DNA of 62,176 nucleotides, taken from positions 1 through 62,176 of the IMG/VR virus record IMGVR_UViG_3300025137_003955, one strand, 5' to 3'. The stretch's first letter is position 1; every line of letters starts with the position of its first letter. The stretch comes from a virus. Taxonomy: Duplodnaviria; Caudoviricetes. The position numbers were made by a program, and so were the translations under genes. The notes below the pieces were generated by a model that did not search any database, had not been told where the DNA came from, and saw only the letters and a list, made by a program, of their open reading frames with translations. This document shows, piece by piece, positions 30,486 to 61,814 of this stretch.

Positions 30486-30815
30486 ATGATTGAGATACTA
30501 CAAGAAGTCACTGATTGGGGCAAATATAAAGTAAATAATGGTGTATACCACATTAATGGTGCTGGTAAACTTATAGCCTATCAACGTAACAAAGATTCAG
30601 AGGTACAAATATTAAATGTGCCTAGTAACCAATTTAGTAAATCGAGACGTAAATTTGTTAAGATAGGCGAACGTGCTGAAGAGTTGGCTAGCCATATTGT
30701 TAAAGTAGAAGGTTCTAATGGTGCTGTTTATCTAATTGATACAGATAAAAAGACTTGTACTTGTCCTGGTTTTACATTTAGAGGTACTTGTAAACATATT
30801 AAAGAATATCTTTAA
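30486..30815 (+). CDS. SWIM zinc-finger protein
   Basis: CTCPGFTFRGTCKH (CxC-x8-CKH). Confidence 0.8.
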   Translation: MIEILQEVTDWGKYKVNNGVYHINGAGKLIAYQRNKDSEVQILNVPSNQFSKSRRKFVKIGERAEELASHIVKVEGSNGAVYLIDTDKKTCTCPGFTFRGTCKHIKEYL

Positions 30816-31656
30816 TTTTAGGAATAGCAATTTCCGTTGCCCACCTTTTATGTGCATCTGCACTTAAATGATGACAATGATTATGATTAGGATTACCAAC
30901 AGGGTCTTCCATAGTCTCAAAATCCCAAGCCAAAGCATCAGCAATACCTGTATATAATTGTAAGCTCTTCTCTGGCACAAAATCGTAAGTTAAACCGTCT
31001 ATGTAATACTGATGTTTCTGCTCATCAGTTAGTTTATAACGTTCTTGTATGTTTTGTTTCCAGTTAAATGTATTTGGACAAAATAGGAACGGTACATTTG
31101 CTCTTTGCATTTGATTTACAGCACTTTCCATCATATAGTATTGTTTGTGTGCCTCTAGATCTGTATCATATAAATTTATATAGAAAGTTTTCATACTTTC
31201 CCATTGTGCCTTGTTCATATGAGCAGGTAAATCGTCCCACCAAACACAGGCTTCTTCATATGTTCTAGAGAAGTCATCATATGTAACTAATCCAGTCATA
31301 CTTTGATGCATTATAGTAGGCTCTATATCTGGATAGCAAGGGTGGTTCCATTCGTTAGTAAAAAACTTATCAACATTATAGTCTGATTGTTTTAAGCCTT
31401 TTTCTATTTCGTATAAGTTGCCACGGTGGTTCCAATCAAATCTGTCTGGCGTTGTCCAATTAACAACTATAAAGTCAGGATTTAAATTTTTAATTGCATA
31501 GTCTATTTGTAATCTTATATTAAAATTACTTCCGCCTACTCTTGCAATGTTTTGATATTCCCAGCCAAGTTCGTTAGATATAAAATAGCCATATTCTGTA
31601 TCAGGATATGCATAATCTCTACTACTCCAACTGCAACCGCAAACTACTAATTTCAT
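30799..31656 (-). CDS. SGNH-hydrolase-like protein (GCS variant)
   Basis: VCGCSWS, NIARVGGSN, NWT..DR, C-terminal HHLSADAH; paralogue of 32761-33612. Confidence 0.6.
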   Translation of the reverse strand: MKLVVCGCSWSSRDYAYPDTEYGYFISNELGWEYQNIARVGGSNFNIRLQIDYAIKNLNPDFIVVNWTTPDRFDWNHRGNLYEIEKGLKQSDYNVDKFFTNEWNHPCYPDIEPTIMHQSMTGLVTYDDFSRTYEEACVWWDDLPAHMNKAQWESMKTFYINLYDTDLEAHKQYYMMESAVNQMQRANVPFLFCPNTFNWKQNIQERYKLTDEQKHQYYIDGLTYDFVPEKSLQLYTGIADALAWDFETMEDPVGNPNHNHCHHLSADAHKRWATEIAIPKIKDIL

Positions 31657-31683
31657 ACTACTATTTACTTAAATATATGTATG
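31654..31683. promoter_or_regulatory. Back-to-back late promoters, each TAAATA-N5-ATG
   Basis: CAT-actac-TATTTA-ct-TAAATA-tatgt-ATG. Confidence 0.6.
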
Positions 31684-32793
31684 GACAAAATTTATATTGG
31701 TTATGACCAGCATAACAAATTCACTATGGAAGACAATCTTTCCAGGTGTTTTGGTAATACTGATTACTTTACCTCTACAGATGTAATAATGATAGAGGGC
31801 AAGTATATATACCATTTAATACTGACTGCTATGTTAGACGCAGACTATGTGTTTGATATAAGCGATAAAGTTGTGCAAGATATACAAGATGACAAGTGTT
31901 TCCTGCTCTTTGATTACACTTTTGAGAGCAGGAACACTAGCATACAGCATGAGTACGACCAGTATAAAAGCATAATAGACAACACTTTAAGCAAGTATAA
32001 CATACAAAAACCCTACATATATGTAGACGGTAATCCCTATAACAGGCACGAGCTTGACTTATATTTTAACAGATTTGTTGTTGAAGTAGGCAGGGCATGT
32101 TTACACTCTGTTACAGACGATAGTGATGTTATGGTGTTTGAAGCGGACCAATCTTTTGCAGAACGTGAGTATAAAGTGTCTAGTTTTAACAGACGTCCGG
32201 ATGAAAACAGAGCAAACTTTGTTGATGCATTTAAAAACAATGCTGATGTATTATGTACACTGGGCAAACCAGATATTCAAGACATAGATTATTATTCAGA
32301 ACGGTTTCCTGACTTAGTTCCTATGTTACCCATGGAATATGATTTAAGTTTAGACTTAGATGTACCTAATTTAGTAAGCATAATGGGTTGGGAGTTACAG
32401 CAAGTAAGTTATATACAAGTAGTAAATGAAAGTTTGTTCCATTATGACAAGTATCACATGTTTATAAACGAAAAAACATTAAAGCCTATTGCTTGTTTGC
32501 AACCTTTTATTATAAACGGTATGCCTGGTAGTTTAGCTCACTTACATGAGTTAGGATTTAAAACTTTTAGTAATTGGTGGGACGAAAGTTATGATACCGA
32601 AACAGATCAAATAAAACGTTCTGATAAAATTATAGATATAGTTACTGATTTGTCTAAATTAAGTCATACAGAATTAATAGACATGTTAAAGGGTATGCAT
32701 GAAACTTTACTGCATAACAGAAGTTTGTTAGTTTCTTTACCTAGAAGCCACTCTATAGATTTATATAATCAGATCGTCAATACTGGGTATTAG
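31681..32793 (+). CDS. Putative glycosyltransferase (GT10/exostosin-like C-terminal motif)
   Basis: VVNES...FINEKTLKPIACLQPFII.G...L..LGFKTF..WWDESYD. Confidence 0.45.
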   Translation: MDKIYIGYDQHNKFTMEDNLSRCFGNTDYFTSTDVIMIEGKYIYHLILTAMLDADYVFDISDKVVQDIQDDKCFLLFDYTFESRNTSIQHEYDQYKSIIDNTLSKYNIQKPYIYVDGNPYNRHELDLYFNRFVVEVGRACLHSVTDDSDVMVFEADQSFAEREYKVSSFNRRPDENRANFVDAFKNNADVLCTLGKPDIQDIDYYSERFPDLVPMLPMEYDLSLDLDVPNLVSIMGWELQQVSYIQVVNESLFHYDKYHMFINEKTLKPIACLQPFIINGMPGSLAHLHELGFKTFSNWWDESYDTETDQIKRSDKIIDIVTDLSKLSHTELIDMLKGMHETLLHNRSLLVSLPRSHSIDLYNQIVNTGY

Positions 32794-33612
32794 TTTTTCT
32801 GCATAAGCCTTGTGAGCTAGAGGTGATATGTGACTGCTAAGGAATCTGCCAGGGTTTTCATCGTAAGTATTATACAATTTACTATCAACTTCTGATAACA
32901 TACTTGCAACACCATCAATTTTATTCTTTTCAGGTATCATATCCCATAATGGATAGTAACTATCTTTTAGTATTTTTTGTGGATCAGTCTCACCACGCAA
33001 TGTTTGTAAATCATGTAAAAAATCTAATGTGTTAGGGCTCATTAAATACGGAATATTGTGTTTTTCTAATTCGTGTATTGCACTTTGCATGATATAAATT
33101 TGTTTATGGCACTCTAATGCAGTATCATATAAATTTGTATAATAATGTCTTAATGCTTTCCAGTTTTGCTCTGTACATGTATTAGGCATAATAGGATATA
33201 CTTCGCATACTTCCTCAAAACTTAAATTTAAATCTTCACAGAATAAACTTTGGAATGTACTAAAGGCTATTGTAGGATCTATGTGTTCTCCAGCAGGATG
33301 ACGCTCATCGTCAGGAGAATGCTCACCTGTTCTATAAGTTACTTGCTTGATTCCTTGTAAGGGATTGTATTCCTTACCTGCAAAGTTCCATTCTATTCTT
33401 GCAGGATTAGTCCAATTAATAATCATTATATCTGGACTAAGATTTTCTATAGCATGTTGTATTTGTAGTCTTATAATAAAGTTACTTGCACTTATTACAG
33501 CAGTATTTTTATATTCCCAACCATAATGATCTGCAACTAATTGTCCGAATTCCACACCAGGACATTTGCGATCTCTACTGCTCCAACTACAGCCACTAAC
33601 TACTAGATTCAT
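32761..33612 (-). CDS. SGNH-hydrolase-like protein (GCS variant)
   Basis: VSGCSWSSRD, ASNFIIRLQI, NWT, C-terminal HISPLAH. Confidence 0.6.
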   Translation of the reverse strand: MNLVVSGCSWSSRDRKCPGVEFGQLVADHYGWEYKNTAVISASNFIIRLQIQHAIENLSPDIMIINWTNPARIEWNFAGKEYNPLQGIKQVTYRTGEHSPDDERHPAGEHIDPTIAFSTFQSLFCEDLNLSFEEVCEVYPIMPNTCTEQNWKALRHYYTNLYDTALECHKQIYIMQSAIHELEKHNIPYLMSPNTLDFLHDLQTLRGETDPQKILKDSYYPLWDMIPEKNKIDGVASMLSEVDSKLYNTYDENPGRFLSSHISPLAHKAYAEKLIPSIDDLII

Positions 33613-34189
33613 TCCGCGGTTTAATTCCTAAAAAGTTTCTTTTCCTTCTTTTAGACACATAACTGAGAGCATCATCTACAGCAATATAGTAAGGATCTTG
33701 TTCCATTGTTGGTGCTTTTAAATGATAAAAAGGTATTTTTTCGTCTCTAAACATTTCCAAAATTGCTTGGTCTATGTTTATACTGTCCTCTAAGTTTTGT
33801 GCTCTGCCTGTTTGTTCGAAATTGTCTGGTCGCTCTAACATAAAGTTTATGTTATCATATTTGTCATAACATTCACGAGCTAGTTTGTCTATTAGATTGC
33901 TATATAAAGGTCCGTCATATAGTTCTCTATATATGCCACTCAACATTACAGGAGAATCTGTTATTACATAGTCAACTTTACCGACAAGTCTTAATATCTT
34001 TCTGTGTTGGTGTGCTAACATGTATAATTGATCTTTAAGCATGGGTACATTATCTTCCCATACACATTCTTTTGCAAACTCATTATTGAGTTCAACACTA
34101 TATCCTGCCATATTCATTTTATAATATAGTCCTGCGGCTTTAGTGCTCTTGCCAGAGTTTGGTCCACCATAAAAATTTATAACTTTCAT
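33596..34189 (-). CDS. P-loop kinase/ATPase (NadR/AAA_28-like)
   Basis: GGPNSGKST, EFAKE, VITDSP, GR.Q. Confidence 0.8.
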   Translation of the reverse strand: MKVINFYGGPNSGKSTKAAGLYYKMNMAGYSVELNNEFAKECVWEDNVPMLKDQLYMLAHQHRKILRLVGKVDYVITDSPVMLSGIYRELYDGPLYSNLIDKLARECYDKYDNINFMLERPDNFEQTGRAQNLEDSINIDQAILEMFRDEKIPFYHLKAPTMEQDPYYIAVDDALSYVSKRRKRNFLGIKPRNESSS

Positions 34190-34193
34190 TTAC

Positions 34194-34352
34194 TCACCAA
34201 TTGTGTATATTTCCTGCTATAATAAAGAAGCATGTAATAAAATTAACACCAACAATAATTGTTCGTATCATTGCAATCTTATCTGCTTCTGCATCTGTTG
34301 TTCCTTCTTTCTCGCCTATGGCTTTGGCCCATAGCCTCCATAAGTTTTTCAT
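34194..34352 (-). CDS. Small membrane protein (52 aa) of a type common in T4-like aquatic phages
   Basis: MKNLWRLWAKAIGEKEGTTDAEADKIAMIRT...IAGNIHNW. Confidence 0.7.
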   Translation of the reverse strand: MKNLWRLWAKAIGEKEGTTDAEADKIAMIRTIIVGVNFITCFFIIAGNIHNW

Positions 34353-35017
34353 TTATACCCTATTTGCATGTGTCTTGTGTAACTTGGTGTTTTTAAACTT
34401 CCTACGAAATGTGTTTTACTAAGTGGATACTTTTCCTGCATTTCTTCCGCAGTATAGCACACATTTATATGACCGTCAAACTCTTCTGAGTCATTTGTTT
34501 GCATAATTATTAATTGATCGCTACCTGCTGATTCAAACCAATTTGTACTCATATGTTCACAACTGGTATTAATAACTATATCTGGAGATACTTTAATTAG
34601 CTCACCTCCAGTCTCAAATTCCATATGATTTATATCAAGCAAATCTAAATCTGCAACTACACCTTTAAACTTCCATCCGTTTGCTACATGTTTTTGATTA
34701 AACTTTTCCGCCATCTCAATACTTTCTGCGTCTATATCTATTCCATATATACGTTTTATGTTTAAAGCATTTAACATTGGCTCTACAATACTTCCTATCC
34801 AGCACCCTAATAATGCTACAGTTGTATTACTGGGCAATGGTGTTACTTTATATAGTTCTCCCAGCAACCAACTTTTACTTGCTAATTGACCTTTGCTAAA
34901 AGCATCACGTGGATAACGTCTATCCATTACTGCTCTTTCAAAATAACTTGGTGGAATTCTCAGAAAACTATTATCAATATAATCTTCTACATCGTTCCAT
35001 GTTTTAAGATCTATCAT
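34349..35017 (-). CDS. Class I SAM-dependent methyltransferase-like protein
   Basis: LLGCWIG (motif I), GIDID (motif II), DIVINTSCEH. Confidence 0.7.
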   Translation of the reverse strand: MIDLKTWNDVEDYIDNSFLRIPPSYFERAVMDRRYPRDAFSKGQLASKSWLLGELYKVTPLPSNTTVALLGCWIGSIVEPMLNALNIKRIYGIDIDAESIEMAEKFNQKHVANGWKFKGVVADLDLLDINHMEFETGGELIKVSPDIVINTSCEHMSTNWFESAGSDQLIIMQTNDSEEFDGHINVCYTAEEMQEKYPLSKTHFVGSLKTPSYTRHMQIGYK

Positions 35018-38000
35018 ACTGCTCCCTTAACCAAGTAAAGTCATTTATTTTATCTAGTTTTGCTAGATTGTCTTTGTTCGCTTCCGCAAACTGGTTCCCC
35101 GCTAGTGCTCCGTTTACTGCTTCTGCTGTAAACTCCTCCTCGCCCCTAGTGTTTATCCAGGCATCTAAACGTTGTTTACTTTCAGCATCATCATTAAGTG
35201 TGAGTTTTACACACTCTCTGAAAGCACTCCTCCAAGTGCTAAATGCATCAGTATTAAATTTAGTAATGCAACTTATTTGTGGCATTGACTTAAATCTATT
35301 GCTTAGACCTGTTGTAAAGTCTAATCCCCAAGATGTAGCATTTCTTACCATATCTGTTGGGAATAGTTTTACTCCTCCATATCCATATTCATCTTGTGTG
35401 ATAGGATTTTTACTAGACCATACATGTACAACTTCTTGGTCGTATACATCTGGAATATAGTCAAATTCAAATTCTTCTGTTATTTCTGCATCTGCATCTA
35501 CTACCCAAAACATTTGGCTTGTTGCTCTAGTAGATGCAACCTTATGAGCTTCAAAAATACCTTCTACATCTCTAACCCATATTAAATTAATATTTAAACT
35601 TTTTGTTCTTATATGGTCTTGTAATTTTCTAAATCCTGCATCAGCATTGGGCTCTTTATAACTTAAGAATATAATATCATAAGGTACAGTTGTACTACCT
35701 ACTTCCCTTACATAGTTTAAATTCTTTATTCTGTTTAATTTTAAGTCATCAGATTTGATGTCTGAATAGTCATTACTTGTAGGCCATAATCTTAAGCCAC
35801 CATATGCATGTACTTTCTTACTGATAGGATTTAACTTTTGCCATGCATGTACTTTACTTGTACTAGTTATTGCAGGCAGATATCCACGATCAAGCAACTT
35901 TTCATCCACTTTCACATCTGGGTCCACAGTCCAAACAAAGGGGGTTTTGATGTCCTTTGTCGCGTTTATGAACTCGTTCTTTTCTAAACTTTGCAAGTGG
36001 ATAACTGGCCATACAGGCCTTAGACTTGCAATAGTATTTATTTGTTTTAAGTGTTCAAAACTATTGTTCTCTATCTCTTTGTCAGTGTATTCGTTGTCTA
36101 AGAACAGATGCTTAGGCACTAATCTGACGCTCGTATATGCGTTGTCTTGGTTAAGAAATACATGTATATACTTTTGATCCCATTGTGTCGGGTAATAATC
36201 AAACTTAAATTCAGGGTCTATTTGTGTAAAAGCGTCTACAACCCAGTACATATTACTGTCAGACTGGGCAGATAGACGCTCATAGACGCTCTGTAAGCCA
36301 TTTTCATAGTCAGATGCCTGTAAGTAATATATAGGATATTCTTTTTGTGTACAAGAAGGTTCTCTAATATATTTAGGTCTGCCTTTAGTTTGAGGCACTT
36401 TAGGGTATAGTGTTACACCACCGTAATCGTACTGCCTATTAGTTATAGGGTTAAGTTTTTGCCATACATGTGTTTTTCCATTATCCCAAATTTTAGGTAC
36501 AAACCCAAAATCAAATGTTTCAAGTACATTTACATCTGGATCTATTACCCAAAACCAACTAGTTGGAGTTTTCATCCGGCCCAGTTCTTCAGATTCAAAT
36601 ACAGGAAATGTAAGTTGCTCTCCAAATGGTGTTGTATTATGAATATTTAATCCGCTATCCTTATGATTAGCAGGTACCCAATATATACCACCCATCTCAT
36701 CTGGGTACTTATGCTCTAACTGTCCTCTAACTTGATAAACATGTATTTGATCTTTTTCGTTTTCGTTCTGCCATGGGACAAATTCAAAATCATTGTCATC
36801 TAACACATACTCTTTATCCACTAACCAGCAATCTTCTGTAATATCGTTATAGTCACTTGGATCACTTACTCTGTATACTGAGAATGTTTTAGCATTTATT
36901 ACTAAAGGGTCTTTATGTATTTTTAATTCATCTGTACTACTATCAGGATACCAATATAAGCCTCCCATTTCTTCTGGGTATTTGTTTGTTAATTGATTGT
37001 GTATATGGAATACATGAACTTTGTTAGTATCAAAAGAATCAGGTGCCCATTTAATACTTTCGTCCAGTCTATATGAACTATCTGCTACCCAACAACTATG
37101 ATCTTTTTTAGGATTTATTGAAGGGTTATCCACAAAGTACATAGGATACTCTGGTATAGCATTTAGCATTTCGGCATGTATAACTATGTCGCCATTCCAA
37201 TCTACTGGTACCCATCTAAGTCCACCTATGCTTTCAGGATACTTATGTCTTAGTTGGTCTCCAACATGAAATGTGTGAATACAATTTTGTTGGAACAATG
37301 GTGGCGCCCATTCTATCTTTTGATTTAACTCGTACTCGATGTCTACTATCCAACAGTCTTGAAATACTTCTGTATATTCGTCTACATTATCTACTTTAAC
37401 AACTGGATAACTTCTATCGCTTGTTGGATTTTTAGCAATGTATTTTATTGTTTCTGTATTATATGCTTTAGGTACTAACTTAACACCGCCACATCTATTG
37501 TCACTTATATTAGTAATACTTTTTGGGTACTTATGTTCTAATTGATTAGGTATTTTAAACACTTGTATTGTTTTTTGGTCGTACTTAGCAGGAACATATT
37601 TAAAAACATCATTAAGTTCGTGTTCGTCGTCTACTAACCAAAACATTTTGGATCTACTTTTCCTAGCAGAAGATTCATAATCATTAATATTATTTGTATA
37701 AAAAATATCATATCTTATAGGTACAATATCTTTTTGGTATTTGTGTTTTGTAAAATCAAATTGTTTATGTACCAGCCTTATACCGCCACAACGGTTATCC
37801 CATGCATCTGTATAATCTGTTGGATATCTTTCCTCTAAATGACCAGGTAATTTAAATACATGTATAAATTCTCTTTCGTGTATTGCAGGAACATATAACA
37901 GTTTACCATTAAACTGAAACTCTCGATCAACTACCCAAAACCAATCTGTTTTACTGCGTTCTGCATATTCACTGTATGCATCTGCTGTAAATTCATCGTC

Positions 38001-40558: not shown

Positions 40559-40704
40559 CTATATATGAAAGGGTCTCTTTTCCTTAATTCTTCTAATTTC
40601 TTTTTAAGTAATGCTTCCTCATCAGGAGTTAAGTCTAAATCATCATTAAAAACTTTGTTTTCATGTTCCTTTTGAGCATCATTTTTTTCTCTTCTTTCTG
40701 TCAT
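40555..40704 (-). CDS. Small protein ending KRDPFIYR (49 aa)
   Basis: ATGA-coupled to both neighbours. Confidence 0.6.
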   Translation of the reverse strand: MTERREKNDAQKEHENKVFNDDLDLTPDEEALLKKKLEELRKRDPFIYR

Positions 40705-47536: not shown

Positions 47537-47537
47537 T

Positions 47538-55377: not shown

Positions 55378-56028
55378 CTAGAATGTAATACCAAAGTTTA
55401 TAGATTTCGTATCTCTGTCTTGAAATCCCTCGTCAATCATTCTCCATGAAATACCTACTGTGATGTTATCTGCAAGTTGGTAATCCAAGTTAAATTCGTT
55501 CCTAGTATAAGAATCGTTTCCTGACTCGTATAAAAACTTATTAGTGGCACTTAGTTTGTCAGCAATTTTGTAAGTTATCCATGTACTGTTCCTAATAATT
55601 GCTTCACTACTATCACTTTCTAAATATGCAACTGAGTATTCGTTGCTGACTTTTATACGTTCTGAACGGTATACTTTATAACCAAAACCTGCACCAATAA
55701 CTGTTCTTGTTTTATATTTAGATCTATACTTGTCATTATCAACCTGTACTAAACCTAGAAAGTACATTTTATCTGTCTTTTCATAATTTTGTTTAAGGTT
55801 AAAATATGTTAAATTTTCTTCTTCTTCGCCATCGTTTTCTTCTGTAACAAAATCAAATTCTATATTTGTTTGCCATGGCCCAACTTCTCTACTCCAATCT
55901 ATACTTAGATCTAATTCCATGTCACCGTCGTCTACTTCTGCGCCGAAGCCAACATCTATTGCATAGGCATTAATACTTAATAGTAATAATACTACTCCTG
56001 TTACAATACCTAATACCCATTTTTTCAT
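55378..56028 (-). CDS. Outer-membrane beta-barrel (YdiY/DUF481-like)
   Basis: Signal peptide MKKWVLG...AYA, alternating beta strands, GAGFGYK, C-terminal FGITF. Confidence 0.7.
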   Translation of the reverse strand: MKKWVLGIVTGVVLLLLSINAYAIDVGFGAEVDDGDMELDLSIDWSREVGPWQTNIEFDFVTEENDGEEEENLTYFNLKQNYEKTDKMYFLGLVQVDNDKYRSKYKTRTVIGAGFGYKVYRSERIKVSNEYSVAYLESDSSEAIIRNSTWITYKIADKLSATNKFLYESGNDSYTRNEFNLDYQLADNITVGISWRMIDEGFQDRDTKSINFGITF

Positions 56029-57020
56029 AATAATCCCTTCTCTAATAATTCTTGTATTTGTTTTTCTCTTATCATGGCACCCCATCTTTTAGGATTAACA
56101 TAAGTTAATTTAAAAAATTTACACATTTGAGGATTAGGGTCAAACAACATCATTTCGTTAATGCTTTCGTTTAGTTTATGGCCTAGATCTTTAATAGCAA
56201 TCTCTAACATGTCACGGTCCCATTTAACTTTAGAATATTTACATACTTCATCTCCTGGAAAACGAGGTAGTATAGTGTTATCAAAGAAGTCTTTAAACCA
56301 ATCATAATCTGATATTAGATTTGTATTCCATGTACTATTAACGGTCATGTCACACCCTAGTCTCGCTCCGTAGAGAGCCCATAAGCCATTATCTACATCG
56401 CTACCAATATTACACCATGTTTGTAATCTGTTATAGTTTTGCCACCAAATTTTTTCTTTAAATTCATCTGGTCTAACACGGGCACCTTGATCAGTACTCA
56501 TTTTAACACCTTCTCTAAACCCTGCTCTAAAGGCTTGAAACGGACTTGCTGTTTGATGTACTTCGCTAAACGTGTCGTTAAGTTGTATGTAATCTAACTT
56601 CCAGCAAAATTCCATACCCTCGCCATCTTCAGCGGCTTCATGAGTGTTCATGTCTTTAACATATTCTGTGGGCCAACATTTAAGTCCGCCGTTACCATAT
56701 ACTAAGCCATTTAAAATATTTTTTGCATTCCAACTAAAGATACATTCACTAATAACTTTACCGTCATGATCAGTATCAGGAACATCTAATGTTTGTTCAA
56801 AGAAGTCGTCCATGACAATGTTATCGCCATCTACGGTTATAAATCTATCTGTTTCGGATTGATTGGCACATTCTTTGTGTGCGGCATCAAAGCCTTTCAC
56901 ACCGTGTACACGTTTAGCCCAAGGGACCTTGTTTAATAAGTCAGCCCAATGCTCTTCCGCATTTGGTTCGTCATAAGAAATATAGAATATGTCTAATTCT
57001 GTAACATCGATCTTCGCCAT
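56025..57020 (-). CDS. GT-A fold glycosyltransferase-like protein
   Basis: DIFYISYDEPNA, VKGFDAAHK, TVDGD (DxD), YGNGGLKCWP, AFRAGFREGVKM. Confidence 0.75.
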   Translation of the reverse strand: MAKIDVTELDIFYISYDEPNAEEHWADLLNKVPWAKRVHGVKGFDAAHKECANQSETDRFITVDGDNIVMDDFFEQTLDVPDTDHDGKVISECIFSWNAKNILNGLVYGNGGLKCWPTEYVKDMNTHEAAEDGEGMEFCWKLDYIQLNDTFSEVHQTASPFQAFRAGFREGVKMSTDQGARVRPDEFKEKIWWQNYNRLQTWCNIGSDVDNGLWALYGARLGCDMTVNSTWNTNLISDYDWFKDFFDNTILPRFPGDEVCKYSKVKWDRDMLEIAIKDLGHKLNESINEMMLFDPNPQMCKFFKLTYVNPKRWGAMIREKQIQELLEKGLL

Positions 57021-57041: not shown

Positions 57042-57719
57042 TTAAGTACGCACATATTTATCAAAAATCTCTAGGGTATATACACTACATCGATCCAGAT
57101 CTTTTGGTGTATCAGAAGTTACAGACCCTTCTTGTATAAGGTCTTTTAGTGGAACTTTTACAATGTATATCATAAAATGTGGATCATTAACACTTGTAAA
57201 ATAAAAAGTTAGCTCTTTTTGTCCTTTTGCTGTAATAGTGTCAAGATCTTTTCCTTTATATTTATTCTTAGTTTTAGCACTTGCTGTGACAGTAAATTTA
57301 TTACCTTTAAATCCTACTTTAATATTATATGTTCTACTTTTGTCGTACTCAATAAGTTGCACAAAAGCATCTTCACTTCTAACATAGAGACTTTCTATAG
57401 GTCGTAATTCAATATGATAAGTGTTTTCATCATCAGGATTTTGTGCTACTCTATATAAATCTAAGTTTTTACCGTCTAAAATGGTTACTTGTTCTTTTGT
57501 AAATGTATAAGACTTCCAGCCTTTAAGTACTTCTACATCTTCCTTAGTAATACAAGTAATAGTACCGTCTTCTAAAAAGTAAACAGTATGGTCTTTTTCA
57601 TACTCTGCTTTTTGCATAGCATAATAATTACCTTCAAATTTTTCTTTATTTTCTAAAAATCGTTGCCGTCTTAGTTCTGCTTGACTAAGTTCTTGTTTTT
57701 TTAATTTTTTAGATGCCAT
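57042..57719 (-). CDS. Hypothetical protein
   Basis: 225-aa ORF within the operon. Confidence 0.6.
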   Translation of the reverse strand: MASKKLKKQELSQAELRRQRFLENKEKFEGNYYAMQKAEYEKDHTVYFLEDGTITCITKEDVEVLKGWKSYTFTKEQVTILDGKNLDLYRVAQNPDDENTYHIELRPIESLYVRSEDAFVQLIEYDKSRTYNIKVGFKGNKFTVTASAKTKNKYKGKDLDTITAKGQKELTFYFTSVNDPHFMIYIVKVPLKDLIQEGSVTSDTPKDLDRCSVYTLEIFDKYVRT

Positions 57720-58572
57720 AATCTTGTTCCATTTGCTTTATCATACTTATACTCATCCAGTCTTTTTCTACATAATGGAATGGATATAGTTGTTGGAAGT
57801 TTCCTATTTTAAAATCTTTATATGTATTATAATATGTGGGTAGTGTTTCAGACCATATTTCACTTATTCGTGTATCAGGAATATTTTGCACATGGCTTTT
57901 CATATGTATAAATGTAGGAACCTCATCAATATTTTCCTGTGTACATAAATGTTCTATACCTAATATATTCATTGCAAGAGCAAAAGCAACATCGCCACTC
58001 AACCAAGTAGGTTTTCCGTTAGGCATAAATTTATAAAACATTCTCTGCCAATGCTGGAAAATTATTTCTATCATAGCAAATAATTCACTCGCTAATTCGC
58101 TCTTTTTAAAGTAGAAAAATGCAGTATATACATTAGGTAAATTGTTTGCCGCAAAATATTTTCTATAATAATTACTGCTCACAACCTCACCTCTATATGT
58201 TCTAACTTTAGTAGTTGCCCACACATCACGTTGCGACATTATATTCCACCAATGACTCACGTCTGTAGGAAATATCATATCAGTATCTAGTATTACTGTT
58301 TCATCATATGGTGACATGTAATAATACTTCCATTTGTTATTAATTTTCCATTCTTCTCTTAGGGCATCATCTTGCCATGGTATATCTACTATGTGGTCAA
58401 ATATTTTTTTATGTTTTTGTTTAATAAGTTTTTTAGTTTTAGCGTCAACACATACTGTCAGGTTATTGACCGTGCTCTGTGTTAGTTTTAAATTAAGTGC
58501 AAGAGCATACGCCTGCTCTAAATAATCAGTAGTATCATTGTTTTGTGCTATTACTATGTAACCTTTACTCAT
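57709..58572 (-). CDS. GT-A glycosyltransferase-like protein
   Basis: SPYDETVILDTD (DxD), FFYFKK, SGDVAFALA, C-terminal HY; paralogue of 60572-61471. Confidence 0.7.
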   Translation of the reverse strand: MSKGYIVIAQNNDTTDYLEQAYALALNLKLTQSTVNNLTVCVDAKTKKLIKQKHKKIFDHIVDIPWQDDALREEWKINNKWKYYYMSPYDETVILDTDMIFPTDVSHWWNIMSQRDVWATTKVRTYRGEVVSSNYYRKYFAANNLPNVYTAFFYFKKSELASELFAMIEIIFQHWQRMFYKFMPNGKPTWLSGDVAFALAMNILGIEHLCTQENIDEVPTFIHMKSHVQNIPDTRISEIWSETLPTYYNTYKDFKIGNFQQLYPFHYVEKDWMSISMIKQMEQDYGI

Positions 58573-58753
58573 TTATATATTTCCAATCTTCTCTAAAAAG
58601 GCAATGTCTATGATATCCTTCTTTTGTTTCATAAACAAATTGCATACCCAAAAGTTCAGTAACTTTACCCTGAAACTTTCCGTTCAAGCGACAAGTATGC
58701 TCAATTTGATCTCCTAACTCAGGAGCCTTCTTGCTCTTCTTTTTTATACTCAT
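58565..58753 (-). CDS. Small hypothetical protein
   Basis: 62 aa; overlaps both neighbours. Confidence 0.5.
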   Translation of the reverse strand: MSIKKKSKKAPELGDQIEHTCRLNGKFQGKVTELLGMQFVYETKEGYHRHCLFREDWKYINE

Positions 58754-58943
58754 ACATCTCTTCCCAATAATCGTATGCTTCAGGTTCTAACCTCTGTATA
58801 CTTTCTTGTAAAATTTCTGCTCTACGTTCTTCAGTAGCATCAAACCATTCTTGTATCTCATCATTTGTTCTACCACAACTTGGACAATTAAATCCATTTG
58901 TAAAACACTTACTAATACACGGTGATAAAACTCTTTTAGACAT
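58719..58943 (-). CDS. DUF1289-family Cys-rich protein
   Basis: SPCISKC...CPSCGRTNDEIQEW. Confidence 0.75.
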   Translation of the reverse strand: MSKRVLSPCISKCFTNGFNCPSCGRTNDEIQEWFDATEERRAEILQESIQRLEPEAYDYWEEMYEYKKEEQEGS

Positions 58944-59517
58944 AACATTGTGATGTGTTTTGCCAAACTCCTTTGTCAACAAAATTAATTATCATAATAG
59001 TTCTTATTCCTTCATATTGTATAGGAGCAAAACCGTGCCATTTTTCATCACTTGGAATAAACAATAGTCCTCTATTATCCTGCCATTCTGTTTTTGCGTA
59101 ATGTGTTTCTTTATTAACATATATGTCTGTTGCTAAATTTTTATCGTCTTCTTTGTCTATGTTTACAATTAAAGTTAATTTCTTTTCAGGTGTGTCAGTA
59201 TGTATTGCATGAAAGAAAGGATACCTATCATGTATCATTTCAGGCCTACAATAGGTATTAGCCAAGTCACAGTCAAATTTTTCTTCAAACATTTTATGAT
59301 CGTTTAAAAACTCTGCAACTGGTTTTAGTGCAGGAAATTCCTCACAATATTCGTTTCCTAAAAAGGTCCTACCTTTTATAATGTCTCTGAATCCGTTTGC
59401 ATTAGAGTAGTCAGCATCGTTTACTTTGTGATCTTTTAATGCCTTAAAGTGTTCATCACTAAAAACATTGTCTATAATCCAATGTTCCCACGGCTCATTA
59501 TATTTTATCGGGACCAT
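58936..59517 (-). CDS. 2OG-Fe(II) oxygenase
   Basis: PWEHWIIDN, HTD (HxD), WHG, R.x motif. Confidence 0.75.
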   Translation of the reverse strand: MVPIKYNEPWEHWIIDNVFSDEHFKALKDHKVNDADYSNANGFRDIIKGRTFLGNEYCEEFPALKPVAEFLNDHKMFEEKFDCDLANTYCRPEMIHDRYPFFHAIHTDTPEKKLTLIVNIDKEDDKNLATDIYVNKETHYAKTEWQDNRGLLFIPSDEKWHGFAPIQYEGIRTIMIINFVDKGVWQNTSQCYV

Positions 59518-60575
59518 AGTTCACCTCCAATTTCGTTAGGTATTATACTTACTTTACTGGCCCAGTAAAAGTTTTGTAAATACTCATCTGTCGATTCGTT
59601 TACTATTTCTTCTATTAAATTTTTACAATTATGTGTGCTGTTGTTAAATAAAATTACATCTTTTTCTTTAACATAACATACATCATCATTTATATCTAAA
59701 TATAAAACTATATGCGAAAAATCGTCCTTTACTAAGTTTTCCTCTCCTATATAGATACCAACTCCTTTAAAATCCATTCTACTTGGTATTAAAAATTTAT
59801 TATCAATAATAGCAAAATTATATAAAGTGGGCGTATCTAAAACAGATTCTATTTTATTTAATATTTCTATTGTGGGACAAAAAATTGTTGGTTGCTCATT
59901 ATTAAACATTTTTCTTAATGATGTGTCTTGATTTATAATACAGTGATCATGATGATTTTTTGTTTCATGTATTTCTAAAAATCTAACTTGTGACATTCTG
60001 TTTTCATCTGGTATATCATCTGTCTTAATTGTTATATGTCTATTTTTCCTCACAAATCCATTACTACAATAATCTATCCATTCTCTTAATTTTAATCCAC
60101 GACCTGGAAAAATATCATCTATATCCCATACACATATTTCTGTATTAATTTGTTGAGCAAAAGCGGCTAAAAATCTATATGTACCAGGATGACAAACAAA
60201 TAATTCGTCTTGCATATAGCCTTGAGGTGGATAACTTATACCATTCTTTTTAATATCATTTACTAACCAATGTAATTTACTGCCATTAAATTGAGCAGTA
60301 AGGCCAGGAGAGCCGTCATCTCTCCAGAATATGTTACTTTTCTCGTAAGTTAATTTTTCTGATAACGGAGAGCTTTTTAAATTAGATAATATATTCTTAC
60401 CTCCATTTGTTAAGGAGCGTAATGCAGGATAAAATGTTTCTGAAAATTTAAAAACTGTTCTGCTTGTAATAATTTTTACATCTGGTGCATTGTCAAAAAA
60501 ATTATTTAACTCTGTATCCTGAGCAAGAGCATCTAAATTTTGTGTAGTGGATTTCATATGTTCTACAAATTTCAT
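59505..60575 (-). CDS. Hypothetical protein (possible ParB/Srx-like segment)
   Basis: LVNDIKKNG...P...HPGTYRFLAA resembles the ParB GxxR motif. Confidence 0.45.
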   Translation of the reverse strand: MKFVEHMKSTTQNLDALAQDTELNNFFDNAPDVKIITSRTVFKFSETFYPALRSLTNGGKNILSNLKSSPLSEKLTYEKSNIFWRDDGSPGLTAQFNGSKLHWLVNDIKKNGISYPPQGYMQDELFVCHPGTYRFLAAFAQQINTEICVWDIDDIFPGRGLKLREWIDYCSNGFVRKNRHITIKTDDIPDENRMSQVRFLEIHETKNHHDHCIINQDTSLRKMFNNEQPTIFCPTIEILNKIESVLDTPTLYNFAIIDNKFLIPSRMDFKGVGIYIGEENLVKDDFSHIVLYLDINDDVCYVKEKDVILFNNSTHNCKNLIEEIVNESTDEYLQNFYWASKVSIIPNEIGGELWSR

Positions 60576-61471
60576 TTTGCATACTCCAGCAAATTATCAC
60601 TAACTCTGTTTATAGCCCATTTATTCATAATATGCAAGTCCATGCTTTGCCACTTAGTTAGCATAAAGTCTCCAGGGCTTCTGGGCTTCTCTAAGTACAT
60701 GACAATAGTGTTCTCATCTATTGCACTATGTATATCGTCTGTATCAAAACTCTTGTAAAGGGTGGTAGGCAACTGTGGTATTCCTTTATCTACAAAACCA
60801 CTCATCATATGTGCGGCAATACTAAAACTGTAATCGTTTCTGTATAGTGTACCCTGCCACTTATATAAATCTTTATAGAATTGTGGATTATTTTTAACAT
60901 GCTTGACTATGTTAAAAAAACTTTCCACATATTCTGTCTTGCGGAAGTAAACCACAGTTGCCCAATACATTGTTATACCCATGTCATATAGTCTTGCTAA
61001 TGACGGGTCTTTTCGTTCGTACATGATATCCTGGTACTTCCAGTTCATCATAAGTTCGTTATTATGTCCCCAACAATGATTTAATGTATCACTTAGTATC
61101 AAATAGTCTACGTCTATTAATAATGTTTCATCATATGGGGAGATGTCGTATGCATCACATCTGTTTACATTATAAAAAGGTAAATGCTTTGCATTATGGC
61201 TAGTGTCTTTATATAGCCTTAAATTTCTTGCTTTAAAATCTTTGTCTTTATCTACTACAACTATGTTGTTAATTGCTTTTTTAATTAGACGTTTGCCTAA
61301 TGTTTTCTCGCCTTGTGCTAAACTATGTGGGTCTGTAACCACTGTAATGTTTTTAATGCCTAAATTCTTTTGTACTAGTAATGCATTAACCACAGCCAAA
61401 CGGAAGTAATCTATCTCCGTGTTGTTATGTGCGAACATTATTACGCCGCGAGTATTACTTTCCTTCTTCAT
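60572..61471 (-). CDS. GT-A glycosyltransferase-like protein
   Basis: SPYDETLLIDVD (DxD), WATVVYFRK, RNDYSFSIA, H.MNK. Confidence 0.7.
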   Translation of the reverse strand: MKKESNTRGVIMFAHNNTEIDYFRLAVVNALLVQKNLGIKNITVVTDPHSLAQGEKTLGKRLIKKAINNIVVVDKDKDFKARNLRLYKDTSHNAKHLPFYNVNRCDAYDISPYDETLLIDVDYLILSDTLNHCWGHNNELMMNWKYQDIMYERKDPSLARLYDMGITMYWATVVYFRKTEYVESFFNIVKHVKNNPQFYKDLYKWQGTLYRNDYSFSIAAHMMSGFVDKGIPQLPTTLYKSFDTDDIHSAIDENTIVMYLEKPRSPGDFMLTKWQSMDLHIMNKWAINRVSDNLLEYAK

Positions 61472-61814
61472 TTAGATCTAATATTTTATGTACTTTTCTT
61501 GCTTTACGAAGTTTTTCGTATTCAGCATAATAGTCGTTGGTTACTTCAAAATATCTACTTTGTATTTCTTCGTAGAATAATTCAACATCAACTTTTATAG
61601 GATTATTATGTATATCCAAGAGTACAACATCTTTTTGACCGTCATCAATTAGTTGTTTACAAAATGTAATTAAGGGAATGTCTATCGTAAAAGTACCACC
61701 ATTAATGCTGTAACTTAATAGACTTTGTGTTTTGGCCTTCAGTTGGGCCTGCTGATTGTTTAGTGTTACTCTGTAATTAGCAAATTCCAGAGCCTTTGTC
61801 AAGCGAGTACTCAT
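61455..61814 (-). CDS. Phage hypothetical protein
   Basis: First gene of the - strand operon, preceded by TAAATA-N5-ATG. Confidence 0.65.
   Translation of the reverse strand: MSTRLTKALEFANYRVTLNNQQAQLKAKTQSLLSYSINGGTFTIDIPLITFCKQLIDDGQKDVVLLDIHNNPIKVDVELFYEEIQSRYFEVTNDYYAEYEKLRKARKVHKILDLNEEGK

Follow-up and report, generated by a model that had tools for sequence, protein, structure and literature searches.

A 31-kb operon of sugar-transfer, radical SAM and sugar-decoration genes in a large marine phage

The DNA analysed here (62,176 nt, IMG/VR record IMGVR_UViG_3300025137_003955; below, the window) comes from a large marine phage and carries a 31-kb operon of sugar-transfer and sugar-decoration enzymes. 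This raises the question of what such an operon builds, and on which acceptor. An initial annotation, made from the sequence alone, had read the island as a pathway for a heavily decorated glycan, and the gene content does amount to a sugar-building and sugar-tailoring pathway. It had also been aware of no characterised pathway with this composition, and our literature searches turned up none.

Layout of the island and signals at its head

Positions 30799-61814 hold 31 listed ORFs of at least 60 aa, 30 on the - strand and one (31681-32793) on the + strand. Non-coding DNA is nearly absent: 21 of the 30 ORF-to-ORF junctions overlap, and the remainder leave gaps of 1-159 nt. Inspection of the three largest gaps revealed clear small - strand ORFs in two and an open frame in the third, so the true gene total is about 33-34, close to the "about 35" first proposed. 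Locus counts here and below refer to 80 IMG/VR loci, in which the head of a conserved core was found with the GT8-like gene 57709-58572 as query, or to the eight close IMG/VR relatives, all of which are collinear over 33596-53594. ORFs that are small or lack a family match are:

34194-34352, - strand: small ORF of 52 aa with a hydrophobic C-terminal half, occupying an apparent gap
38857-39057, - strand: 66-aa protein containing Cys, kept in 8/8 close loci
40555-40704, - strand: small ORF of 49 aa, occupying an apparent gap
57042-57719, - strand: u225, no family match, in 39/80 loci
58565-58753, - strand: u62, 62 aa, from the ORF listing, in 26/80 loci
59505-60575, - strand: u356, accessory, no family match, in 4/80 loci

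Three features mark the head of the operon:

61868-62176: gene for a small membrane protein with three TM-like segments, upstream of the island
61838-61861, - strand: terminator-like hairpin (9-bp stem and T run) closing the upstream gene
61820-61826, - strand: ATAAATA motif from a 7-mer search, candidate promoter

The motif lies 5 nt 5' of the ATG (61814), directly past the hairpin (61861-61838). Its copies number 15 against 39.8 expected, and every one is co-oriented with the genes; further copies within the island lie at 57055, 57259, 48895 and 36035. The late-type promoter proposed near 61820 stands as a 7-mer but not as a late-only signal. The exact T4 late box, TATAAATA, has 0 occurrences in the whole window, and ATAAATA is also found 5' of a short ORF at 8066 heading the DNA-polymerase block and overlapping the start of an ORF (18293) flanked by the FolE and QueE-like genes, so that it is not readable as late-only. 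Sigma-70-like sites occur at chance level (99 found vs. 92 expected), which demonstrates neither the presence nor the absence of sigma70 promoters. The argument that late promoters and missing sigma70 promoters favour virion decoration is thus weak, and late timing of the island based on motifs is not secure.

A conserved core and its glycosyltransferase-like proteins

A conserved, collinear core underlies the island, which is an expanded version of it; the core order is u119, GT8, GT8, GT-A, one or more twitch radical SAM genes, GT-A' and methyltransferase. Core genes and the other GT-like proteins are:

61455-61814, - strand: u119, 119 aa, first gene of the core; no Pfam match; in 77/78 loci that include 3 kb or more of upstream DNA
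60572-61471, - strand: GT8-like glycosyltransferase b, paralogue of 57709-58572; in 78/78 loci
57709-58572, - strand: GT8-like glycosyltransferase a, core; the query used above
56025-57020, - strand: GT-A-fold GT-like protein with a helical C-terminal domain (model), core
35004-38864, - strand: 1286-aa protein built from 12 GT-A-like modules in tandem, each about 90-100 aa (repeat alignment)
34349-35017, - strand: class-I methyltransferase-like protein, core; Pfam E 1.4e-3, below cut-off
31681-32793, + strand: GT-B-fold GT-like protein; its family has no Pfam model

The core frames the island at both ends: GT-A (56025-57020) marks one, and the GT-A' of 35004-38864 plus 34349-35017 the other. 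Sixty loci extend 6 kb or more beyond the GT8-like gene on its downstream side; GT-A is present in 60/60 of them and one or more twitch radical SAM genes in 56/60. The core order is constant down to 26-50% identity, 340-385 kb contigs included, and the complete core occurs as adjacent genes (ORF354-347) in a single cultured jumbo phage (Ralstonia phage RsoM2USA), ORF354 being the homologue of u119. The genes thus co-occur in related phages, which was the synteny check suggested at the outset. Because the two island ends are fused elsewhere in single polypeptides (GT-A, GT-A' and methyltransferase in P0121, P0128, P0146 and P0244) and the same genes adjoin in RsoM2USA, the island would be one functional unit, building an oligosaccharide in the cytoplasm and then tailoring it heavily. 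Between the core ends, the marine lineage has gained extra twitch radical SAM paralogues (eight in all), an NDP-sugar dehydrogenase, a NeuB-like protein, a carbamoyltransferase, the GT-B protein and candidate sulfo-, hydroxyl- and acyl-editing enzymes.

None of the GT-like proteins reached a Pfam or PHROGs GT family. Five (one GT-A, one GT-B, two GT8-like and the 1286-aa multi-module protein) are supported in other ways, by fold, glycogenin profile or paralogy, in keeping with the "at least four" originally counted; the structural matches are at fold level only (Z about 10, identities 5-17%). With a five-sequence profile (A6), the GT8-like pair matches glycogenin (GT8) at E 9e-4. Residues 3-157 of the GT-A model (pLDDT 91.4) align with GT-A enzymes at VIA Z 8.3-10.2; the best Foldseek match is SunS, a peptide (glycocin S-) glycosyltransferase (6.7e-4), and the ESM Atlas label is "Glycosyltransferase 2-like". 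Homologues of this protein occur fused to GT1/GT28-type GT-B and EryCIII-like/GT1 domains, and some carry Sel1 repeats. The final module of the 1286-aa protein is part of a complete GT-A' domain, and its C-terminus is paralogous to the GT-A protein (E 6e-15). Its counterparts in seven relatives (997-1364 aa, 8-12 motif copies) are 49-55% identical, the adjacent genes there being mostly far more conserved. For the GT-B model (pLDDT 86.6), Foldseek gave 87 matches at E<=1e-3, all GT-B-fold proteins among the matches listed, and the best 50 VIA-wide matches are likewise all GT-B-fold (Z 8.6-12.1). There are 243 homologues, with a Pfam domain in none of the 120 listed; L012 has five copies interleaved with radical SAM genes. 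The methyltransferase label is a lead, to which TIGR03587 (Pse-associated methylase) adds a match at E 0.002, under its cut-off.

The radical SAM array and the decoration genes

The array comprises eight N-terminal-twitch radical SAM genes:

41318-42622, - strand: rS1, NF033640 8e-106
42609-43766, - strand: rS2, NF033640 2.2e-97
43763-45004, - strand: rS3, NF033640 1.1e-117, clade support 97%
44964-46211, - strand: rS4, NF033640 1.8e-107, clade support 99%
46208-47536, - strand: rS5, NF033640 3.5e-84
49640-51043, - strand: rS6, NF033640 1.2e-86, clade support 100%
51924-53594, - strand: rS7, NF033640 1e-90, clade support 99%
53842-55374, - strand: rS8, core ortholog group, NF033640 2.4e-97, clade support 99%

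All eight radical SAM enzymes first proposed prove to belong to one family: each matches NF033640 (radical SAM, N-terminal twitch domain) at 283-393 bits, above the curated cut-off of 170 bits, and retains the CX3CX2C motif and four N-terminal Cys as invariant alignment columns. At least five of the paralogues each belong to a distinct ortholog clade with strong support, and 1:1 orthologues occur in clusters with a DNA polymerase just 53% identical to that of the window, so the array is old and differentiated rather than recently amplified. Between five and eight family members above cut-off were found in 5/5 related contigs searched. By profile, the nearest solved relatives are an unnamed radical SAM (8vpo, 1e-6), BlsE (1.5e-5) and MoaA (2e-4); BlsE is a sugar-nucleoside decarboxylase. 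Many of the secondary NCBIfam matches are peptide maturases, all far under their cut-offs. Our literature search turned up no characterised NF033640 member, so we infer a sugar substrate from the neighbour genes only. The family also occurs, with mixed neighbours, in five contigs labelled bacterial MAGs: only in L021 is the gene flanked by an AT3-SGNH acyltransferase and, on the other side, a sugar C-methyltransferase, while in the others it adjoins ion-channel, EEP or protease genes.

Donor-sugar, decoration and accessory genes are:

30799-31656, - strand: "SGNH-like" paralogue at the left end of the island; paralogy and alignment, no HMM match
32761-33612, - strand: "SGNH-like" paralogue with a GCSWSS motif, 38% identical to 30799-31656; no HMM match
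33596-34189, - strand: P-loop NTPase or kinase-like protein (AAA_28), Pfam 9.2e-11
39044-40558, - strand: NodU/CmcH-family carbamoyltransferase, Pfam Carbam_trans_C 3.1e-54, Carbam_trans_N 1.1e-34
40701-41321, - strand: DUF6071 protein with a GCSH N-terminal motif, Pfam 2.1e-7; short paralogue of the "SGNH-like" trio
47538-48854, - strand: NDP-sugar dehydrogenase, Ugd-like, UDPG_MGDP_dh central 9e-18, N domain 3.3e-15
48882-49640, - strand: possible sulfotransferase, ESM Atlas neighbour cluster (59% Sulfotransfer_2, score 0.96)
51182-51943, - strand: short NeuB-like protein, 253 aa, Pfam NeuB 7.3e-10
53594-53881, - strand: WYL_2 small beta-barrel protein, Pfam 7.1e-6, at cut-off; in 18/80 loci
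55378-56085, - strand: DUF481 outer-membrane beta-barrel, accessory, Pfam 5.1e-17; in 4/80 loci
58719-58982, - strand: DUF1289 small Cys-rich protein, Pfam 1.6e-11; putative Fe-S electron carrier
58936-59517, - strand: possible 2OG-Fe(II) oxygenase, accessory, PF13640 E 0.042, under cut-off; in 4/80 loci

HMM matches uphold the earlier labels of carbamoyltransferase (80-97% identity in 8/8 close loci), P-loop protein, outer-membrane barrel and NeuB-like protein, though the last is short and scores 28 bits against the 399.65 cut-off of the NeuB_NnaB equivalog. The enzyme once called a UDP-Glc dehydrogenase is backed as an NDP-sugar dehydrogenase (TIGR03026 2e-42, under its cut-off; NCBIfam NDP-sugar-dehydrogenase 145 bits, below its 189.8 cut-off). 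On the other hand, the sulfotransferase label, with one ESM Atlas cluster and no HMM match in Pfam, PHROGs and NCBIfam searches, is a lead, as is that of the 2OG-Fe oxygenase. The three "SGNH-like" proteins do form a single paralogous family; with a DUF6071 match in one of them, the SGNH label itself is likewise a lead. In a hydrophobicity scan of the island, we read as real only the signal- or TM-like segment of the DUF481 protein (N-terminal, residues 17-49); rS1 has one short hydrophobic stretch, taken as a buried strand. No family search of the island found a flippase, polymerase or polyprenyl-phosphate priming transferase, and family and TM searches found no membrane-embedded GT. The single signal-bearing protein and the lack of flippase, polymerase and priming transferase in these searches argue for a cytoplasmic acceptor.

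Position beside virion genes and the possible acceptor

A link to the virion is supported independently by synteny rather than by promoters. The core of RsoM2USA comes immediately after tail-sheath, baseplate and ORF361/ORF356 genes that share its strand. Mass spectrometry confirmed both ORF361 and ORF356 as virion proteins, in proteomics described as covering 10 abundant bands only, with glycosylation outside its scope (PMC8504454). Many IMG/VR loci likewise have the core directly downstream of same-strand structural genes: among the 73 with at least 9 kb upstream, an ORF355 homologue is present in 51 and an ORF361 homologue in 32, all on the core's strand. Just 362 bp of the window lie upstream of u119, so this adjacency is seen in relatives rather than on this contig. 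The Sel1 repeats on GT-A homologues and the SunS match hint at a protein acceptor.

Our preferred reading, which we hold tentatively and at somewhat under an even chance, is a cytoplasmic glycan-building and radical-tailoring system acting on a virion protein. The dehydrogenase and the NeuB-like enzyme would supply acidic sugar donors, and a soluble acceptor would receive the glycan assembled by the five GT-like proteins. Every radical SAM ortholog group, its enzymes predicted to have their own 4Fe-4S cluster and an auxiliary twitch cluster, may carry out a radical step of its own on the sugar (epimerisation, deoxygenation, decarboxylation or C-C chemistry), and carbamoyl, methyl and possibly sulfate groups would be added afterwards. 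The acceptor would most likely be a structural protein of the tail, baseplate or fibre region, and the outcome a strain-variable glycan coat on the particle.

The DUF481 barrel, the GT8-like proteins and the Ugd-like enzyme also fit host envelope modification. LPS, capsule or another surface glycan would be altered, for example to block superinfection, with DUF481 in the outer membrane. GT8-like proteins and NDP-sugar dehydrogenase are typical of LPS-type enzymes, the signal-bearing barrel lies within the operon, and O-chain modification has been proposed for pelagimyophages where PMC7029224 describes their "host recognition cluster" of GT8, UDP-glucose 6-dehydrogenase and radical SAM cassettes. 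We nevertheless consider this unlikely: the family searches gave none of the membrane machinery named above, the barrel is accessory, the core keeps company with same-strand structural genes, and a 31-kb surface pathway would be of little use to a lytic phage that kills its host. Decoration of modified bases in the phage genome, for restriction evasion, recalls T4, which glucosylates hmC. The GT-B model does align with the T4 alpha- and beta-glucosyltransferases (Z 11.5-11.7), but 50 GT-B matches have a similar Z and the T4 enzymes are just two of these. The island's P-loop kinase-like protein would fit such a role, GTP cyclohydrolase I and a QueE-like radical SAM on the same contig suggest base modification, and phage GTs have a precedent in DNA glycan hypermodification (Pyle et al. 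2024, as cited in PMC12619734). Yet the ORFs scanned (part of the genome, and not every + strand ORF) included no hydroxymethylase or DNA transglycosylase, and the structural-gene link and Sel1 fusions point elsewhere, making this improbable.

The twitch enzymes could also cross-link or epimerise a phage protein or small peptide, which the GTs would then glycosylate in the manner of glycocins. Most SPASM/twitch radical SAMs are peptide maturases, many such maturases are among the NCBIfam matches far under cut-off, SunS is the best match of the GT-A model, and the small conserved u119, u62 and 66-aa proteins are candidate substrates. Such RiPP-like maturation seems to us a similarly poor prospect, as island family searches found no precursor-like repeat, leader peptide, protease or exporter, none of 8vpo, BlsE and MoaA is a peptide maturase, and the sugar-nucleotide and decoration enzymes would be left without a role. 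Finally, a small diffusible aminoglycoside- or nucleoside-like metabolite, with no macromolecule decorated, would suit enzymes that are all soluble. Twitch radical SAMs such as BtrN belong to aminoglycoside/nucleoside antibiotic pathways, to which the BlsE match also points, the NodU/CmcH family includes aminoglycoside enzymes, and EryCIII-like/GT1 domains are fused to GT-A homologues. We think it very improbable all the same: family searches found no cyclase, PKS or NRPS scaffold enzyme, no resistance gene and no exporter except the rare barrel, and the constant position beside structural genes would be hard to account for.

A glycan system acting on a virion protein, as we prefer, is testable by experiment, with host-surface, DNA, peptide and small-molecule targets as further possibilities. 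The island has not gone wholly unnoticed: PMC5332604 and PMC7029224 note cassettes of radical SAM genes, and GT8/Ugd genes, among marine T4-like phages, though neither analyses them. The smaller core found in many large phages suggests a widespread, unstudied phage glycosylation system.

Gene layout and candidate promoter elements of the window

Genes in the window run on the + strand over 1-30.8 kb and on the - strand over 30.8-62.2 kb, and the GC skew flips at ~31-34 kb, the site of this change in gene orientation; GC content is 31-41%. The initial annotation had described the island at 30799-61814 as tightly packed, with all but one gene on the - strand, and this holds: of its 31 ORFs of at least 60 aa, only 31681-32793 is on the + strand and the other 30 are on the - strand, and successive ORFs overlap at 21 of 30 junctions. 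The three widest apparent gaps are not empty: clear small ORFs occupy two of them and an open frame lies in the other. CheckV completeness of the 62,176-bp window, an entire IMG/VR virus record, is 17%, which would imply a genome of ~360 kb. A relative with a GT8-like protein 84% identical to that of the island lies on a 250-kb contig, and other relatives found through their radical SAM (rSAM) genes on contigs of 154-183 kb. Jumbo myophages, among them Sinorhizobium phage Phosso, Vibrio phage 2.275.O and Agrobacterium phage Atu_ph07, have DNA polymerases that share 41-46% identity with that of the window.

Landmark genes outside the island
6896-6972, + strand: tRNA-Arg (anticodon TCT)
8386-11061: family-B DNA polymerase (PHROG 262, 8e-197)
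25408-26514, + strand: ATPase (PHROG 1297, 2e-94), near the orientation switch
27449-28771, + strand: HNH endonuclease (PHROG 1314, 1.2e-106), near the orientation switch
61868-62176, - strand: small protein with three TM-like segments, at the contig end just upstream of the island

A nucleotide search of the phage collection with 39044-47536 gave no match, and the tRNA-Arg was the only match to window positions 1-20000; it is 90-97% identical over ~57-69 nt to tRNA-Arg of many unrelated large phages (Klebsiella, Aeromonas, Acinetobacter, Salmonella). The gene at 61868-62176 terminates at a clean hairpin terminator. Homologues of its product precede u119, the island gene at 61455-61814, in 3 of 80 related loci (the best 80 of 95). 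Separately, positions 14924-19667 of the + strand hold a second, small sugar and base-modification block.

Genes of the second block
14924-15928, + strand: GT1-like protein
15921-16886, + strand: nucleotide-sugar epimerase
16922-17413, + strand: phosphoribosyltransferase
17600-18289, + strand: GTP cyclohydrolase I (FolE)
18786-19667, + strand: QueE-like radical SAM protein

Decoration of the virion had earlier been argued from late-type promoters and a lack of sigma70 promoters, and neither argument is well supported. The exact T4 late box, TATAAATA, occurs 0 times in the window against 12.9 expected, and the number of sigma-70-like matches is what chance would give, which speaks neither for nor against such promoters. 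For the 7-mer ATAAATA there are 15 copies where 39.8 are expected, all of them co-oriented with local genes and 12 lying 0-75 nt upstream of an ORF start; examples are at 597, 5318, 8035, 23972 and 26737 on the + strand and at 61826, 57061 and 48901 on the - strand. Because of this depletion, strand bias and position, ATAAATA is probably a functional phage promoter element and looks like one that has been purged elsewhere. The copy at 61826-61820 (- strand) closely follows a terminator-like hairpin. Further copies stand ahead of the first ORF of the DNA-polymerase block and across the start of the ORF flanked by the FolE and QueE-like genes, and the presence of the motif before replication-type genes means that it provides no evidence for late timing.

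Radical SAM, glycosyltransferase-like and accessory proteins

The claim of eight radical SAM enzymes is borne out by a curated model: all eight island proteins (rS1 to rS8) fall into one NCBIfam subfamily, NF033640 (N_Twi_rSAM, twitch domain-containing radical SAM protein), at 283-393 bits against a cut-off of 170 (E-values 3.5e-84 to 1.1e-117), and no member above the cut-off was present in any of 14 control genomes. The three cysteines of the CX3CX2C motif (C137, C141 and C144 of the first sequence) and four N-terminal cysteines are invariant in the alignment of the eight paralogues. In six of the eight, Pfam SPASM matches at residues ~3-109, upstream of the Radical_SAM match, placing a Cys-rich SPASM-type domain N-terminal to the core, whereas in BlsE, BtrN and SPASM enzymes the Cys-rich domain is C-terminal. 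The closest solved structures to the eight-paralogue profile are the unnamed radical SAM protein 8vpo (1e-6), BlsE (1.5e-5) and MoaA (2e-4), and the likeness to all three is at the level of the core only. BlsE, a cytosylglucuronate decarboxylase (PDB 7vob), combines a radical SAM core and an auxiliary Fe-S cluster with a carbohydrate substrate, but its match to the profile covers only ~80 core residues. BtrN is a further twitch/SPASM radical SAM enzyme that acts on a sugar. Our literature search found no characterised member of NF033640 and no paper on the family.

The family is large, with 5871 matches at E<=1e-5 to one island paralogue in public protein data, mostly metagenomic among those listed. 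Recent tandem amplification of one gene was considered as the origin of the array and rejected, as pairwise identity between the paralogues is no more than 20-31% and their orthologues in distant clusters are distinct. With 31 members, a maximum-likelihood tree resolves at least five ortholog clades (SH-aLRT 97-100), each comprising one window paralogue and members from distant clusters. NF033640 genes number 5-8 in each of five related contigs searched, and 1-3 in five MAG-labelled contigs (L014, L018, L019, L021, L022), where their neighbours are mixed: one is flanked by an AT3-SGNH O-acyltransferase and a sugar C-methyltransferase, and others adjoin ion-channel, EEP or protease genes. This survey, a Pfam tally of 91 neighbours plus a scan of 10 chosen immediate neighbours, does not settle the rSAM substrate. 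Since these neighbours are mixed and the solved relatives resemble the core only, we infer a carbohydrate substrate for the island enzymes from their phage gene context. Four distant family members (21-27% identity) are encoded by the cultured, KVP40-like Vibrio phage K566 (locus 13977-20713), three on one strand among hypothetical genes and the fourth just beyond on the opposite strand; no other island genes are present in this phage.

As none of the glycosyltransferase (GT)-like island proteins matched a Pfam or PHROGs GT family, their folds were tested. The protein at 56025-57020 (GT-A) was modelled from a 40-sequence alignment drawn from 1207 representatives, giving a pLDDT of 91.4. Its first ~157 residues match GT-A glycosyltransferases (VIA Z 8.3-10.2; rmsd 3.1 over 139 residues), a fold that also matches nucleotidyltransferases, and in the Asp-x-Asp motif D64 is nearly invariant and D66 invariant across 40 homologues. 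A PDB sequence search with the family profile returned empty or meaningless results. On the basis of the model, this protein is a predicted GT-A fold glycosyltransferase. The single + strand gene, 31681-32793, has 243 homologues, with no Pfam domain in any of the 120 listed. Its model (pLDDT 86.6) has a full-length GT-B fold over residues 1-370; the top 50 of 48,161 chains in the VIA comparison are all GT-B-fold proteins (Z 8.6-12.1), and Foldseek gives 87 matches at E<=1e-3. We predict a GT-B fold glycosyltransferase with two Rossmann domains. The proteins at 57709-58572 (GT8a) and 60572-61471 (GT8b) are paralogues and, in a five-sequence profile with three orthologues, match glycogenin (GT8) at E ~9e-4 over positions 17-109; neither matches Pfam Glyco_transf_8.

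A second GT-A-like protein, encoded at 35004-38864 (- strand, 1286 aa), consists of 12 tandem modules of ~90-100 aa with the motifs W-x-V-D, H-x-F/W and G-G-x-x-L-x-P. The last module belongs to a complete domain (GT-A') paralogous to the GT-A protein (E 6e-15), and the D-x-D is kept in just 4 of the 12 modules. This is by far the most divergent island gene among close relatives (L002-L010), where most neighbours are 76-96% identical: in eight close loci, the module protein is 49-55% identical in seven and 98% in the other, L009. Its orthologues are 997-1364 aa long and contain 8-12 copies of the motifs. Divergence combined with length change is typical of specificity or host-interaction determinants, and the 8-12-module protein could act as a variable scaffold or specificity element.

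The enzymes listed in the initial annotation were confirmed in part. HMM matches back the carbamoyltransferase, NDP-sugar dehydrogenase, NeuB domain, AAA_28 and DUF481, with DUF6071, DUF1289 and WYL_2 as further supported families. The protein at 39044-40558 is assigned by sequence to the NodU/CmcH carbamoyltransferase family, with Carbam_trans_N (120.8 bits) and Carbam_trans_C (183.5 bits) both above Pfam cut-offs; it scores 132 bits against the NodU equivalog (cut-off 1000). The dehydrogenase has N-terminal and central domains above Pfam cut-offs, no C-terminal UDP-binding domain being reported, and scores 145.4 bits with TIGR03026 (cut-off 189.8). The 253-aa NeuB-like protein matches Pfam NeuB at 39.1 bits (cut-off 22.1), with no SAF domain reported, and TIGR03569 at 28 bits (cut-off 399.65). 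The methyltransferase (34349-35017) and 2OG-Fe(II) oxygenase (58936-59517) labels have HMM matches, but under cut-offs; for the oxygenase candidate this is PF13640 at E 0.042 (15.2 bits, cut-off 27). The sulfotransferase label has no HMM support: the candidate at 48882-49640 has no match in Pfam, PHROGs, NCBIfam or the PDB, its label rests on one ESM Atlas neighbour cluster, and it carries what we take to be a PAPS-loop-like motif. The three 'SGNH-like' proteins (30799-31656, 32761-33612, 40701-41321) do share an invariant G-C-S near the N-terminus in an alignment of these paralogues, and one matches DUF6071, but none has an SGNH HMM or PDB match. NCBIfam gave nothing for 59505-60575 (u356), 57709-58572, 48882-49640 or 58936-59517; PHROGs gave no function for nine of ten unannotated island proteins; weak hints were all that Pfam at E up to 10 added.

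A conserved core and its structural neighbourhood

Conserved co-occurrence of the island genes in related phages is shown both by close and by distant relatives. The region 33596-53594 is collinear in eight IMG/VR loci whose rS3 orthologues show 82-98% identity, and most enzyme genes across them are 76-99% identical. A scan with the GT8-like protein at 57709-58572 reached further; its best 80 of 95 IMG/VR loci have 35-91% identity and lie on contigs of up to 385 kb. The order in these far loci is u119, GT8b, (u62), GT8a, (u225), GT-A, rS8, (WYL), rS7, (NeuB-like), rS6, (Ugd), where u62 and u225 are the ORFs at 58565-58753 and 57042-57719. Among these best 80, GT8b is present in 78/78 and u119 in 77/78 loci with at least 3 kb upstream, GT-A is present in 60/60 loci with at least 6 kb downstream, and twitch rSAM genes occur in 56 of those 60, lying downstream with the same orientation in 55. 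DUF481, DUF1289, the 2OG candidate and u356 are found in 4/80 each and the sulfotransferase candidate in 2/80, a rarity that marks all five as accessory.

Two contigs labelled as Haliscomenobacter MAG, L012 (183 kb) and L015 (148 kb), both have the complete rSAM/GT cluster: single rSAM paralogues have 1:1 orthologues there at 35-50%, the carbamoyltransferase is present at 48%, and several copies of the GT-B family, five of them counted in L012, are interspersed among the rSAMs. That these contigs show a cellular origin of the whole cluster was considered, and rejected for L012: because its contig encodes a phage-type DNA polymerase 53% identical to that of the window, L012 looks like a related large phage that binning placed in a bacterial MAG. 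As its genes stand in almost the same order, L015 is presumed to be a phage as well.

Domain fusions elsewhere tie the two ends of the island together. GT-A is fused to GT-A' and methyltransferase (P0121, P0128) or to methyltransferase alone (P0146), two GT-A' domains are fused to methyltransferase (P0244), and other GT-A homologues are fused to a GT1/GT28-type GT-B domain or Sel1 repeats. From the GT-A/GT-A'/methyltransferase fusions, we predict a functional coupling of the window genes at 56-57 kb and 34-39 kb; the 17-kb stretch that separates them, with the rSAMs, the dehydrogenase, the NeuB-like protein, the carbamoyltransferase and other genes, reads as the insertion-expanded middle of one system.

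The sole GT-A homologue carrier among 50,697 phage records, and the cultured REPRESENTATIVE, is Ralstonia phage RsoM2USA (343.8 kb; 51.6% identity). Its ORF354-347, all annotated as hypothetical, encode u119, GT8b, GT8a, a 185-aa ORF, GT-A, one twitch rSAM, a GT-A' of one module (39% identity to the 1286-aa protein's C-terminus) and the methyltransferase. This core lies directly downstream, on the same strand, of ORF356 (structural), ORF359 (tail sheath), ORF361 (2541-aa structural) and ORF362-364 (baseplate), of which ORFs 356, 359 and 361 are reported to have been detected by mass spectrometry of virions (PMC8504454). Among the IMG/VR loci with at least 9 kb upstream (from the best 80 of 95), 51/73 have a homologue of ORF355 and 32/73 one of ORF361, in each case upstream of the core and on its strand. 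The window contig ends 362 bp beyond u119, so that the structural adjacency is seen in relatives and not here. The window epimerase at 15921-16886 is 24% identical to ORF358, inside the structural module of RsoM2USA.

Possible targets and significance

A hydropathy scan of the island picked out TM- or signal-like segments only in the DUF481 barrel and, marginally, within rS1 (41318-42622), where we read the hydrophobic stretch as a buried strand. None of the family searches turned up a flippase, polymerase or polyprenyl-phosphate priming transferase. Together with the lack of TM segments outside the barrel, this argues for cytoplasmic chemistry on a soluble acceptor. Of the readings considered, a glycan-tailoring island, as initially interpreted, has the best support, and conserved co-occurrence has been shown. 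Synteny in relatives and hints from fusion domains point, tentatively, to virion proteins as the target of this system. The best functional analogy is virion glycosylation in mycobacteriophages, whose GTs, together with methyltransferases, reportedly glycosylate capsid and tail proteins (Freeman et al. 2023, cited in PMC12619734); those cassettes have 2-4 genes, occur in actinophages and are without radical SAM, carbamoyl, uronic or ulosonic-acid enzymes. Chlorovirus PBCV-1 also offers virus-encoded, cytoplasmic, host-independent glycosylation of a structural protein, but it is a eukaryotic virus without radical SAM enzymes. PBCV-1 A64R (PDB 2p6w/2p72/2p73) is among the GT-A matches (Z 8.5), a likeness at fold level only with 10-13% identity.

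Other acceptors seem less probable. The host envelope is a rather unlikely target; for envelope sugars one may point to published marine cassettes, some of them listed as O-antigen modifiers, and on the other side stands the soluble acceptor predicted here. Action on DNA is improbable: T4 glucosylates its DNA with GT-B enzymes, glycan hypermodification of phage DNA is also reported, and T4 AGT and BGT are among the structural neighbours of 31681-32793, but no sign of a hydroxymethyl-pyrimidine pathway was seen among the ORFs scanned and the genomic context is structural, not replicative. GTP cyclohydrolase I and the QueE-like protein suggest 7-deazaguanine chemistry may be encoded in the window, but QueC, QueD and DpdA were absent among the window ORFs scanned. 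We also doubt strongly that the island matures a protein or peptide directly. The glycocin S-glycosyltransferases SunS and ThuS share with 56025-57020 a GT-A domain followed by a helical domain, and SunS is its best Foldseek match (VIA Z 9.0-9.4), but at a TM-score of ~0.3 and ~10% identity, and the island encodes no glycocin-like peptide. A diffusible aminoglycoside- or nucleoside-like small molecule made by the phage, an idea to which the BlsE match lends some colour and the structural neighbourhood in relatives none, is very improbable.

It is possible, if doubtful, that NF033640 represents a new type of enzyme for the radical tailoring of glycans, and that large myophages use arrays of such enzymes to coat tail or baseplate proteins with sugars that are hypermodified and differ between strains; each of the at least five ortholog groups, represented here by eight enzymes, would contribute a different radical edit.

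The claim that the system is undescribed stands with a qualification. No paper on radical SAM plus glycosyltransferase genes in a jumbo phage was found in the literature, nor one that describes the core, the rSAM ortholog groups or the modular GT-A protein, but similar cassettes have been mentioned. A 183-kb T4-like environmental genome has 12 radical SAM genes (PMC5332604), and a pelagimyophage 'host recognition cluster' includes such cassettes (PMC7029224). As in the window, these are marine T4-like or large myophages with many radical SAM genes, GT8 and UDP-glucose dehydrogenase, and their cassettes are very probably the same kind of island; in the accessible text of both papers the genes are merely listed, as Fe-S-related AMGs or O-antigen modifiers, with no family, core, synteny or mechanism. 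Four core GT families are noted in another aquatic jumbo-phage lineage (PMC12619734).

The island is a 31-kb pathway whose most abundant component is a radical SAM family for which no characterised member was found. Phage-encoded glycosylation of virions or DNA is otherwise known from a few small cassettes. With a conserved core, old rSAM ortholog groups and a cultured phage carrying a minimal version now defined, the chemistry of the rSAM enzymes and the possible virion glycan coat of abundant marine phages can be tested directly. Should a tail or baseplate protein prove to be the acceptor, the variable module protein, together with the accessory tailoring genes, could form a layer of variation in host range or defence evasion that has so far gone unrecognised.
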